Assembly: GCF_053078305.1 (NCBI RefSeq)
Contig: NZ_CP166879.1
Direction: 5' to 3' (one strand)
DNA length: 64,000 nucleotides
Shown: one piece after another, positions 22,463-64,000 of the stretch
Layout of the letters: each line of letters opens with the position of its first letter
How positions within the stretch are numbered: position 1 is the first letter of the stretch
Position numbers and translations under genes: made by a program
The notes under the pieces: generated by a model
What the model saw: only the letters and a program-made list of their open reading frames with translations
What the model was told of the DNA's origin: nothing
The model's database searches: none

Positions 22463-22732
<270 letters not shown>

Positions 22733-22937
22733 TTACCGTTAAATTATTTTAAAATCAGTAAGTTGTATCGAGTTTGTATGCTTTACAGTTATTAACTTAC
22801 TGTATGTTGATCCAGTGTATTTAACCTTGATAAACTCAGTCCAGCAACACAAAACCGCAACACATTGCATTTTGTCCCGTAGAAAAGACTTGTATGTGTG
22901 AGCTTGTTTTCTGCGCCTACGCAGATAAGGATTGAGA

Positions 22938-61250: not shown

Positions 61251-61805
61251 ATGCTTATTGGCTATGTACGCGTATCAACAAATGACCAGAATACCGATCT
61301 ACAACGTAATGCGTTGAACTGTGCAGGATGCGAGCTGATTTTTGAAGACAAGATAAGCGGTACAAAGTCCGAAAGGCCGGGACTGAAAAAACTGCTCAGG
61401 ACATTATCGGCAGGTGACACTCTGGTTGTCTGGAAGCTGGATCGGCTGGGGCGTAGTATGCGGCATCTGGTCATTCTGGTTGAGGAGTTGCGCGAACGTG
61501 GCGTTAATTTTCGCAGCCTGACGGATGCTATTGATACCAGCACACCGATGGGGCGTTTTTTCTTTCATGTGATGGGGGCCCTGGCTGAAATGGAACGAGA
61601 ACTGATTGTTGAACGAACAAAAGCTGGACTGGAAGCTGCTCGCGCACAGGGACGAATTGGTGGACGTCGTCCCAAACTTACACCAGAACAATGGGCGCAG
61701 GCCGGGCGACTAATTGCATCAGGAGTTCCTCGCCAGAAGGTGGCGATCATTTATGATGTTGGCGTATCGACTTTGTATAAGAAGTTTCCGGTCGGAGATA
61801 AATGA
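61251..61805 (+). CDS. pin: Serine DNA invertase (Pin/Gin/Hin family)
   Basis: MLIGYVRVSTNDQNTDLQRNAL... with catalytic Ser and C-terminal HTH; closely resembles e14 Pin as recalled; ATG at 61251 after aggga. Confidence 0.88.
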   Translation: MLIGYVRVSTNDQNTDLQRNALNCAGCELIFEDKISGTKSERPGLKKLLRTLSAGDTLVVWKLDRLGRSMRHLVILVEELRERGVNFRSLTDAIDTSTPMGRFFFHVMGALAEMERELIVERTKAGLEAARAQGRIGGRRPKLTPEQWAQAGRLIASGVPRQKVAIIYDVGVSTLYKKFPVGDK

Positions 61806-61885
61806 AACCGTAGCACGTCGTATGCAAGAACGTGCCACGGCTGGCTGATAAGCTTGTAAAAATATTGAACAGGGAGTGGAGCATT

Positions 61886-62533
61886 CTATGAAGCTAATTT
61901 GTTTAATTTCATTTGTAGTGACTTTACTTCTTGGTCGATAATGTCGAATCCCTTATTGACAGCATCTCTTAGCTCTGCATCAATATTTTTTATCCCTTGA
62001 GCATAATCTACCATTATATTTATTTTTGCATCATGTAATCTCTTATACATGGTTTTATTTTTGTTATTGTCTGCCATGCCAATAAGGATTTTTTCATAAT
62101 CCTCAATGAGTTTGTTGTTTCCTTTAAATGATTGTATTAATGAGCGTGAATATGTGTATATGTTAATTATTGAGTCTCTAGCAGAATCATTTAGTTTTGC
62201 AATGACATTCGCATTTTGCTCATAGAATGTGAAATTATCATCCCCTACAGGGAATGTGAGAATCAACATTTGTCCCGGTTTTATATTATCAATGTGTGTT
62301 TTCATCCTTTTATTATATAAATTGATTAGGGTGAAAACTTCTCCCTTAACTCCTTTTAATACTGAAAGTTGTAATTCAAGGGATTCTCTTTCTGTCTCTA
62401 CTTTAGACAGCTTAGCTTGTTGGGTAACTCCTTTTAGGGTAAACCATCCGCCAATAAGAGTACCAACTAGAGCTGTGAGGGAGGAGGATAACCATCCAGG
62501 TATGCTATTTAAAAGATTACTAAATTCACTCAT
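61886..62533 (-). CDS. Membrane-anchored protein of unknown function (cargo at prophage right end)
   Basis: 215 aa; N-terminal TM helix (WLSSSLTALVGTLIGGWFTL), predicted coiled coil, N/K-rich soluble domain; AT-rich. Confidence 0.45.
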   Translation of the reverse strand: MSEFSNLLNSIPGWLSSSLTALVGTLIGGWFTLKGVTQQAKLSKVETERESLELQLSVLKGVKGEVFTLINLYNKRMKTHIDNIKPGQMLILTFPVGDDNFTFYEQNANVIAKLNDSARDSIINIYTYSRSLIQSFKGNNKLIEDYEKILIGMADNNKNKTMYKRLHDAKINIMVDYAQGIKNIDAELRDAVNKGFDIIDQEVKSLQMKLNKLAS

Positions 62534-62593
62534 TATAAGTACTCGCTAATATTGAACGATATATATATATCAAATTATTATAAAACTCGTCAG

Positions 62594-62935
62594 CTACTGG
62601 AGAAGGCTACCTGAACTTCGATCTATTCCTGCATCCATATAGTTGATGGTCTTCTGGAGCTCTTCGATTAGGGCAACAGCTTTTGCTCGAGAAATGCATA
62701 TTAGTTGATCCGGAAATTCTTGTAAGGGCCAGTTTGGTATACAGGCCATGTTATCAATGAAGGATGCAGACAAGTAAACTTCATTGGTAACCAGAGAATA
62801 GCTTACCTCAAAATTGGTGAGTTCCGGCAAACTGCTAACGTTTGACTCTTTTCTGCGCATAATATTATCCATGACTGTAATTATGTACAGGTGATGGTCT
62901 TCAATTTCGAAGAGGGAGTCAAGGGGGAGTCTCAA
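62594..62935 (-). CDS. Protein of unknown function (cargo, upstream partner)
   Basis: 113 aa, AT-rich, same strand as and 60 bp upstream of the 215-aa gene. Confidence 0.45.
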   Translation of the reverse strand: MRLPLDSLFEIEDHHLYIITVMDNIMRRKESNVSSLPELTNFEVSYSLVTNEVYLSASFIDNMACIPNWPLQEFPDQLICISRAKAVALIEELQKTINYMDAGIDRSSGSLLQ

Positions 62936-63062
62936 ATGAACCGTTATAGAAAAAGGGGGGGGATCTTTGTGTTGCTGAACTTATGCAAAATTTTTTTGCA
63001 CCATAAATCCAACAACACATTCAATAACACATTGCTGTATCACTATGAAAATAAATGTGTTT

Positions 63063-63119
63063 TTATTTGATTTCACACATATCACAATTGATGCATTTTT
63101 TAGTGATTAACAGCGCCAT
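63063..63119 (-). pseudogene. yfhL: Remnant of original yfhL 5' end (19 codons) at attR
   Basis: Minus-strand ATG at 63119 encodes [18 protein letters not shown] then stop; first 16 residues match YfhL N-terminus; diverges at the att core. Confidence 0.6.
63072..63089. repeat. attR core (18-bp direct repeat)
   Basis: ttcacacatatcacaatt identical to 22676..22693. Confidence 0.6.
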
Positions 63120-63174
63120 AAGGAAACTCTCAAAACAACACAAACCGGGCGGGCATTATACGCGCATTCTTTAC

Positions 63175-64000
63175 TCAGACCAGTTTTTTCACCAGCGCTT
63201 CACTATGACGAATACGTTCTGGTGCCAGTTCCAGATCCTGCTGAATCAGCGCAATGAACAGCAAATCCGTTAACATTCCCTGCGCGTGACAAGCAGAGAT
63301 TGAAGCACTGTTTGTCGCTTGTTCTTCGGCAATGGTATACAGGCAATGAGAAGCACGCTGTTGCAGGGCATTGGGAGTAAAGCCGGTAATCGCCAGCACT
63401 TTTCCGCCCACTCGCAGCATCTCATCTGCCGCCAGGTTTAACTCGCGTCGTACACCGGTGTAAGAAATGGCTAATAACAGATCGTCAGGGGACGACGCCT
63501 GTACGGTAGCGAGTAGCGCATGCATATCGCGCACTGCGGCAGCATTGAAGCCAATCTTCATCAGCTTCCAGGCAAAGTTTTGCGCCACCAGACCCGAAGC
63601 GCCAATACCGGTCAGAATTATCCGCCGCGCAGAGCGCAACATTGTTACGCATTCATGCAGTTTCTCTTCACTATTAACGTTTAGCGTTGCGTACATAGCG
63701 GCAGTATTTTCTTTAATCAGTTTTTCGCCGACCAGCCGTAACGGATCATCACCGCGGATTTGGTTATGAATGGGCACGGAGGGCGATTCCGGCTGGCTTG
63801 CCAGCGCTTCACTCAACGCCAACTTAAGCGCCGGAAAACCTTTATAGCCGAGTTTTTGCGCGAACTTCACGACGCTGGACTGACTGACTCCGGCTTCGTT
63901 GGCCAGTTGCTGAGAGCTTAAATGGCGCGCCGTATCAGGTTGTAGCAGCAGATAATCCGCCAGTTTTTTATCACTCTGGGCAAGCCCCTGGTAACGCTGA
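63175..64000 (-). CDS. yfhH: RpiR/MurR-family transcriptional regulator (YfhH-like); 5' end runs off window
   Basis: HTH region …LSSQQLANEAGVSQSSVVKFAQKLGYKGFPALKLALSEAL… followed by SIS domain; reading frame still open at window end. Confidence 0.8.
   Translation of the reverse strand, partial: QRYQGLAQSDKKLADYLLLQPDTARHLSSQQLANEAGVSQSSVVKFAQKLGYKGFPALKLALSEALASQPESPSVPIHNQIRGDDPLRLVGEKLIKENTAAMYATLNVNSEEKLHECVTMLRSARRIILTGIGASGLVAQNFAWKLMKIGFNAAAVRDMHALLATVQASSPDDLLLAISYTGVRRELNLAADEMLRVGGKVLAITGFTPNALQQRASHCLYTIAEEQATNSASISACHAQGMLTDLLFIALIQQDLELAPERIRHSEALVKKLV

Follow-up and report, generated by a model that had tools for sequence, protein, structure and literature searches.

A variable accessory slot at the right end of an Escherichia coli prophage inserted in yfhL and its swappable cargo gene for a predicted membrane protein

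The closest described counterpart of the locus analysed here is found in e14, a prophage of Escherichia coli K-12, which combines an invertible segment with stfE and tfaE, the invertase gene pinE, one accessory gene and an att site in a host gene, icd, whose end the phage replaces; at the equivalent place the order of genes is pinE-mcrA-attR, with the HNH type IV restriction enzyme McrA as the cargo. Our subject is the right end of an E. coli prophage of about 40.4 kb, inserted in yfhL and delimited by an exact 18-bp att repeat, which we analysed in a window of 64,000 nt from contig NZ_CP166879.1 (RefSeq assembly GCF_053078305.1); unless a relative locus is named, coordinates are positions in this window. 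Two open reading frames (ORFs), ORF-A and ORF-B, are located there between a pin-type invertase gene and attR (Table 1). For this locus, the pinE-mcrA order of e14 provides a direct precedent, and the icd site of e14 is occupied by ORF-A homologues too, namely those of Citrobacter and Morganella. The two loci differ in that e14 has no ORF-B and in the nature of the cargo, since ORF-A bears no signature of a nuclease or of any other enzyme and is predicted to be membrane-anchored. As set out below, ORF-A and ORF-B are mutually independent, the former a swappable inserted cargo gene and the latter a fixed end-gene, and ORF-A can reasonably be regarded as a candidate exclusion or defence protein of the single-gene kind.

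A second point of comparison is provided by the Salmonella phage SEN34, a Brunovirus, and the Escherichia phages vB_EcoM-611R5, 606R2 and 683R1, which share with the window prophage the genes for baseplate J, a DUF2612 protein, the tail fibre and its chaperone, as well as an ORF-B homologue placed last before attP and int. Nucleotide identity amounts to 78.7% with SEN34 and 94.8% with vB_EcoM-611R5, and the respective ORF-B proteins are 80% and 95% identical. These phages differ in what lies next to ORF-B, which is either an Acyl_transf_3 gene or a gene for an unrelated 281-aa protein in place of ORF-A.

With regard to possible function, two classic prophage systems offer partial parallels. 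In phage lambda, rexA and rexB are co-transcribed with cI and cause abortive infection at the membrane; RexB is polytopic and needs RexA. In Providencia prophages, an ORF-A homologue likewise follows directly on a cI-like repressor gene and one further gene in the same orientation, and this rex-like position would imply expression in the lysogen. Unlike rexAB, however, ORF-A mostly stands alone and shows neither sequence nor architectural similarity to the Rex proteins, and the copy in the window is not near a repressor gene. The SieA protein of phage P22, which has 162-164 aa, three predicted transmembrane helices and a C-terminal FxRYPxEAxxFNK motif, alone suffices to block DNA entry (PMC10883804). 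ORF-A resembles SieA as a small prophage-encoded protein of the inner membrane specified by a single accessory gene, that of SieA lying near conversion genes; it differs in its single predicted transmembrane helix and large cytoplasmic bundle, in the absence of the FxRYPxEAxxFNK motif and in the want of any sequence relation (no PHROG match).

The right end runs from baseplate and tail-fibre genes through the invertible tail-fibre segment and the pin-type invertase to ORF-A, a spacer, ORF-B, a non-coding arm and the att core. Much of this had been recognised in a preliminary description made from the sequence alone: the ORF listing and the att repeat confirm two minus-strand ORFs between pin and attR, the AT-rich spacer of 60 bp with its (TA)n run is present at 62534..62593, and both genes are AT-rich relative to the remainder of the prophage (GC 0.33 in ORF-A, with 0.29 at third codon positions, and 0.43 in ORF-B, vs. 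0.50). ORF-B, by contrast, had been read as a 113-aa protein starting from TTG at 62935, and is better described as an 88-aa protein starting from ATG at 62860, for reasons given below. Both are genuine genes under purifying selection: the longest stop-free run in 61806..63071 reaches 219 codons vs. a maximum of 166 among 2000 shuffles, the ratio of nonsynonymous to synonymous substitution rates (dN/dS) of ORF-A is 0.11-0.17 against four genera, and ORF-B shows 0.11-0.18 differences per nonsynonymous site (pN) at saturated synonymous sites.

The phyletic distributions of the two genes are distinct. A search of 5426 complete E. coli genomes found ORF-A in 79 of them and ORF-B in 120; all copies are chromosomal and, in every region examined, lie beside yfhH. 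About 40 of these genomes possess ORF-B without ORF-A, as do Salmonella and Citrobacter prophages; conversely, ORF-A is found without an ORF-B-like neighbour in all six other genera examined (Enterobacter, Dickeya, Providencia, Citrobacter, Klebsiella and Morganella). ORF-B is limited to three genera, as against a spread of ORF-A over the whole order Enterobacterales and beyond, and conserved co-occurrence or adjacency of the two across lineages was not found. Moreover, homology to the prophage type of vB_EcoM-611R5 ends at 62579, 15 bp past the stop codon of ORF-B. These separate distributions, the differing GC contents and the homology junction between the genes overturn the earlier notion of a two-gene module.

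The region next to the invertase is a variable accessory slot at the prophage right end, a kind of locus that is well known. In related prophages, the ORF-A of the window has three alternatives. First, in the approximately 40 E. coli genomes with ORF-B only, it is replaced by the unrelated gene for the 281-aa protein WP_001039127.1, which is also present at the slot in the induced phages vB_EcoM-611R5, 606R2 and 683R1; this protein matched no PADLOC or NCBIfam family. Second, in SEN34 and related Salmonella prophages the slot contains the Acyl_transf_3 gene, coding for an O-antigen acyltransferase. Third, in Citrobacter the slot is empty, with ORF-B directly abutting the invertase gene. Profile-profile comparison with hhalign found the ORF-A family unrelated to either alternative cargo, the 281-aa protein or the acyltransferase. 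The region has two hallmarks of moron cargo, namely conserved flanks around a varying content that includes an empty state, and a deviating base composition. Hence, the accessory character that had been proposed for this position at the prophage end is well founded, given McrA in e14 and Acyl_transf_3 in SEN34, and the comparison with related prophages at the yfhL site, proposed at the same time, revealed a slot whose content varies. The slot position alone, however, tells nothing about what ORF-A does.

Prophage ends at the yfhL site also display other contents. In O55:H7 DEC5E and NCTC9022, a third cargo set encodes three proteins, one of them small, one a DUF2335 membrane protein and one of 108 aa, none of which matched PADLOC. 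Further cargo in other prophages at this site includes J-Hok/Gef-tail fibre-DUF4376 and a combination of a YadA-like, a sigma-like and a DinI protein.

ORF-B is, as judged from its distribution, a backbone gene conserved at the end of the phages of this lineage, because it is the last gene before the att site whatever filling sits beside it; this is the case in E. coli, with or without ORF-A, and in SEN34, the Salmonella prophages and Citrobacter. All of its 61 homologues come from Escherichia, Salmonella and Citrobacter. Their lengths favour the shorter reading of the gene: 43 of the 61, including every full-length homologue from outside E. coli, have 87-88 aa, and longer calls, of 113-145 aa, are confined to some of the entries from E. 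coli. The initial methionine is invariant in a 19-sequence alignment, PHROG_17793 (a family of unknown function, E 1e-43) aligns with residues 26-113 of the long form, and the Prokaryotic Genome Annotation Pipeline (PGAP) calls the 88-aa form wherever it annotates the gene. The protein is acidic (isoelectric point 4.6), and its AlphaFold2 model, of moderate confidence (pLDDT 70), consists of a β-hairpin followed by a long helix; a profile search of PDB sequences with ORF-B matched nothing. Its sole functional clue is the constant position adjacent to att, facing inward.

ORF-A, in turn, is by its genomic settings a stand-alone mobile cargo gene carried by many kinds of elements. We recovered 216 database homologues with 62-74% identity across Enterobacterales. 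In Enterobacter, the homologue lies in a chromosomal islet beside HigBA; in Dickeya, it is in an integrative and conjugative element (ICE), beside CcdAB and an IS110 element. Citrobacter prophages with two different tail types carry it last before the icd' junction, and in Morganella, again at the icd site, it is found between gpJ and a UmuDC cargo. In Klebsiella pneumoniae (loci L038-L040), it sits beside a truncated integrase gene in a small element that also encodes an adaptor of PhiTE type and a Phage_cap_E capsid protein and resembles a capsid-forming phage-inducible island. More distant relatives occur on a phage-like contig and beside TIR and DUF5677 genes.

In lambdoid prophages of Providencia, the homologue comes directly after the genes for a cI-like repressor and an HSDR_N protein, all on one strand, and this run (L012:6013-8657) is possibly an accessory operon expressed in lysogeny. 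The intervening protein has 385 aa and its HSDR_N domain is PD-(D/E)xK nuclease-like. One Providencia variant has an AbiTii-domain gene 6 kb away.

Relatives at 31% identity were additionally observed on non-mobilizable plasmids of 106-127 kb from Enterobacter, Citrobacter, Salmonella and E. coli. The one such plasmid examined (L029) is of IncFIB type and contains a phage N-6-adenine methyltransferase gene; these plasmids of about 110 kb may be phage-plasmids.

In blastn comparisons with other genera, similarity is restricted to the coding region (62523..61894, at 74-77%). What these loci have in common is essentially the bare ORF. A shared promoter-like stretch upstream of the homologues, which we considered, was rejected in view of the same confinement.

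The ORF-A family is large. A profile search retrieved 663 clusters (at 50% identity) with E<=1e-3 and 250 with E<=1e-10; among the 150 clusters listed, most are full-length at about 185-230 aa. We built an AlphaFold2 model of ORF-A from a 26-sequence alignment (pLDDT 79.9, pTM 0.71), in which residues 1-36 have low confidence and three long helices (29-82, 116-154 and 160-214) form a bundle. An ordered loop holds the invariant motif GDDNFxFYExNA; in the family at large, E65 and F101 do not vary, and G24, Y73, Y126, N139, N140 and Y177 are nearly so.

There is one N-terminal hydrophobic segment, at about residues 11-33, whose Kyte-Doolittle hydropathy is >=1.6 in 25 of the 26 close relatives and in 49 of the 56 distant ones; the second-best hydrophobic window stays below 1.6 in all 26 close relatives. 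The 15 residues before this segment contain on average 0.12 lysines and arginines in the close set, vs. 4.0 in the 15 residues after it; the corresponding means for the 56 distant members are 0.50 and 2.95. By the positive-inside rule, this asymmetry would place the bundle of about 180 residues in the cytoplasm and the short N-terminus outside. ORF-A is accordingly predicted to be an inner-membrane protein with a single N-terminal transmembrane helix and a helical bundle facing the cytoplasm. Of the N-terminal transmembrane helix and coiled coil that had been noted at first sight, the former thus corresponds to the hydrophobic segment, which is marginal in this copy, while the latter is modelled as a three-helix bundle.

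Searches for known relatives of either protein returned little. Neither ORF-A nor ORF-B matched a Pfam, NCBIfam or PADLOC family, and ORF-A has no PHROG match with E below 0.1; a PHROG scan of ten distant relatives gave nothing usable, and PADLOC and PHROG scans of the neighbouring and alternative cargo proteins gave nothing. A tblastn search of 50,697 phage records found no homologue of ORF-A. In Foldseek searches, the best PDB match had an E-value of 0.05, with the matches being generic bundles, whereas those in the AlphaFold database were to uncharacterised proteins only, three of which are named DUF4760 (E 2e-6 to 1e-4, TM-score about 0.65-0.7). The family profile matched none of the PDB sequences, inspection by eye revealed no Rx4-6H HEPN-like motif, and ORF-A does not have the build of the 4HB_MCP-type sensors of chemoreceptors and histidine kinases, in which a periplasmic bundle between two transmembrane helices is joined to a cytoplasmic signalling module. 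Hence the view in the preliminary description that neither protein has a recognisable structural or lysogeny function stands, as no virion, lysis or lysogeny family was matched. The remote-homology and structure searches that it had proposed were informative in that they uncovered no virion or lysis homology; they revealed no function, yielding a PHROG of unknown function for ORF-B and the fold matches named DUF4760 for ORF-A.

The resemblance to DUF4760 (PF15956) concerns the fold of those three AlphaFold entries and a similar length. However, a Pfam scan of 56 family members matched none of them to the DUF4760 model or to another informative family. The only paper we found that mentions DUF4760 does so as cargo of a genomic island (PMC9964261). 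The link explains nothing about ORF-A because DUF4760 is itself without known function. A paper on orf6 and orf10 of phiv142-3, promising at first, was set aside because its primers fail to match the window.

How, then, might ORF-A act? The reading we favour, while rating it at somewhat less than even, is that it is an exclusion or abortive-infection protein expressed in the lysogen and acting at the inner membrane. We lean this way because it is a compact, strongly conserved, non-enzymatic, membrane-anchored single-gene cargo borne by many elements, at prophage ends, near toxin-antitoxin, TIR and restriction genes and, in one case, in a rex-like position; from these features we infer its expression in lysogeny and its protective function. 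ORF-A would be made in the lysogen from a promoter of its own or by read-through from the host yfhH-yfhL' transcript, and would protect the lysogen from other phages or mobile elements by acting at the inner membrane. There it might either interfere with genome entry, in the manner of superinfection exclusion, or sense a product of infection and damage the membrane, leading to abortive infection. More doubtful is the extension of this reading to the family, whereby its at least 663 clusters would represent a new stand-alone system against phages or mobile elements, specified by a single gene for a protein of about 190-230 aa, located in the inner membrane with its bundle in the cytoplasm and maybe related in fold to DUF4760. 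Such a system would travel as a bare ORF between prophage ends, immunity regions, ICEs, small elements with integrase and capsid genes, and replicons resembling phage-plasmids.

No terminator-like site was detected on the minus strand in a scan of 61700..63250, and the 60-bp spacer contains no promoter-like site on that strand. Read-through from host yfhH-yfhL' into ORF-B and ORF-A is possible because they share a strand with no terminator-like site between them. Any phage promoter for ORF-B would have to lie within 62861..63071.

Several observations weigh against a protective role at the membrane. A scan for consensus promoters gave counts not above those in shuffled sequence and found none upstream of either gene on the correct strand, and ORF-A is preceded by a weak Shine-Dalgarno sequence. 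With a Kyte-Doolittle value of 1.35, the copy in the window has the weakest hydrophobic segment of the family. None of the 5027 models of PADLOC-DB 2.0.0 matched ORF-A or ORF-B at E<=1, and ten distant ORF-A relatives yielded only partial, noise-level matches to PADLOC (E>=0.003). Toxin-antitoxin and defence genes are usual neighbours in the cargo region of any mobile element. Lastly, the literature that we surveyed on the two proteins, their relatives, yfhL prophages and SEN34 includes no study addressing these genes.

Among the alternatives, the one that fares best, though we consider it unlikely, is that ORF-A is a factor of lysogenic conversion or host physiology unrelated to defence, concerned with the envelope, stress, division or virulence, perhaps as an EzrA- or BAR-like scaffold or regulator. 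A membrane anchor joined to a helical bundle without an enzymatic motif would suit such a role, as would the O-antigen acyltransferase in the slot of SEN34 and the DinI, UmuDC and SRAP stress cargo that accompanies the gene in Citrobacter and Morganella. Family members also give weak matches to BAR-like, Pil1 and EzrA models of Pfam, but these are sub-threshold and far from significant (E 0.02-0.24); virulence-related context was not seen at the loci examined, and the recurrence of toxin-antitoxin pairs, a cI-like repressor and TIR genes as neighbours better suits a conflict between elements.

Less probable still is that ORF-A is selfish cargo, serving addiction or competition against plasmids, ICEs or satellites or conferring no host benefit. 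Its presence on an ICE, on IncFIB replicons resembling phage-plasmids and on a small element that combines a truncated integrase with capsid genes is in line with this, and toxin-antitoxin pairs are often adjacent; nevertheless, strong purifying selection across genera argues for a function, and no conserved antitoxin-like partner gene is found beside the homologues.

That ORF-A serves the lytic cycle, be it as a holin, an antiholin, a spanin-like regulator or a helper in injection or assembly, is highly improbable. It is a small membrane-anchored protein encoded next to tail genes, and the negative promoter scan would fit as well; however, it is on the strand opposite to the late tail operon and convergent with it, sister phages with the same backbone lack it, an ICE and chromosomal islets free of phage genes carry homologues, and the searches of phage records and PHROGs found no relative. 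Equally far-fetched is that ORF-B and ORF-A form one co-transcribed two-gene system (toxin and antitoxin, sensor and effector, or a defence operon), for although they share a strand, a gap of just 60 bp, an AT content above that of the prophage and joint travel in 79 E. coli genomes, the occurrence of each without the other, their unlike taxonomic ranges and the recombination junction at 62579 between them have largely refuted it.

The remaining features of the prophage are collected in Table 1. Its baseplate is of Mu type and its tail fibre invertible, and the att core occurs in the window only twice, with 0 copies expected by chance. The integration point is the 5' end of the host yfhL gene. 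Since the phage carries its own yfhL start, which stands in for the first 10 codons of the gene ahead of the common 18-bp core, integration leaves yfhL intact at attL, whereas a stump of 18 codons is left at attR. The genes annotated beyond attR in RefSeq relatives are yfhH, yfhb, tadA and mltF. The repeats CAACACA(T/A)T, direct as well as inverted, are present in both arms beside the att core (62968-63064 and 22846-22870), and are probably the arm-type binding sites of the integrase in attP.

The invertase gene, intact in the window, is truncated in the variants with the 281-aa gene and annotated as frameshifted in several relatives (e.g., O103:H2 12009, L001:5447-6000; O55:H7 DEC5E, L022:2172-2728). 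Just 3' of its stop codon, a region at 61783-61847 contains a GCACGT...ACGTGC hairpin, and the 35 bp at 61813-61847 within it are 100% identical in records of Stx1- and Stx2-converting phages, near the right ends of these; such phages account for 39 of 49 matching records. The sole match in an Rfam scan was a sub-threshold one to CssrB, a small RNA of Shigella (31.7 bits vs. a gathering score of 76), which is outside the genes and overlaps 61813-61847.

Table 1. Features of the prophage right end, its att sites and alternative cargo at relative loci (window positions unless prefixed by a locus label)
Feature	Position	Strand	Remarks
Pin-type serine invertase	61251..61805	+	Left border of the cargo slot; intact ORF of 184 codons; pinE/recombinase family in RefSeq relatives
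Variant-specific cargo segment	61806..62578	.	ORF-A between unique flanks of 80 bp (3') and 45 bp (5'); GC ~0.30
ORF-A, 215 aa	61886..62533	-	Predicted N-terminal membrane helix and helical bundle
Spacer, 60 bp, AT-rich, with (TA)n run	62534..62593	.	GC 0.23; distal 15 bp (62579-62593) backbone, other 45 bp cargo
ORF-B, 88 aa	62594..62860	-	Terminal backbone gene; PHROG_17793
attP/attR arm, non-coding, 211 bp	62861..63071	.	GC 0.35; CAACACA(T/A)T repeats
Truncated original yfhL 5' end	63063..63119	-	ATG at 63119; 18 codons, stop within phage DNA
att core at attR, TTCACACATATCACAATT	63072..63089		Identical over 18 bp to 22676..22693
att core at attL, TTCACACATATCACAATT	22676..22693		Only other copy in the window
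Phage-supplied substitute yfhL 5' end	starts 22723	-	attL side
281-aa alternative cargo, WP_001039127.1	L002:4869-5714 and L020:2354-3199	-	Relative loci
Third cargo set (small protein, DUF2335, 108-aa protein)	L022:2777-3874 and L044:3298-4356		ORF-B replaced too

What is new here is modest: the slot is delineated, its various fillings and the empty form included, ORF-B emerges as the terminal backbone gene specific to this lineage, and ORF-A is placed in a large, unnamed and widely mobile family of defined architecture. Should ORF-A prove to have no phage-related phenotype, the locus would be one more uncharacterised moron. If it does protect lysogens, a compact single-gene membrane system would be added to the immunity genes borne by prophages, and several hundred clusters that no database names would gain a function. 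The locus moreover constitutes a natural experiment, in which one backbone is combined with at least four alternative fillings of the slot (ORF-A, the 281-aa protein of unknown function, the acyltransferase and nothing), and the slot is therefore a practical place for finding accessory functions.

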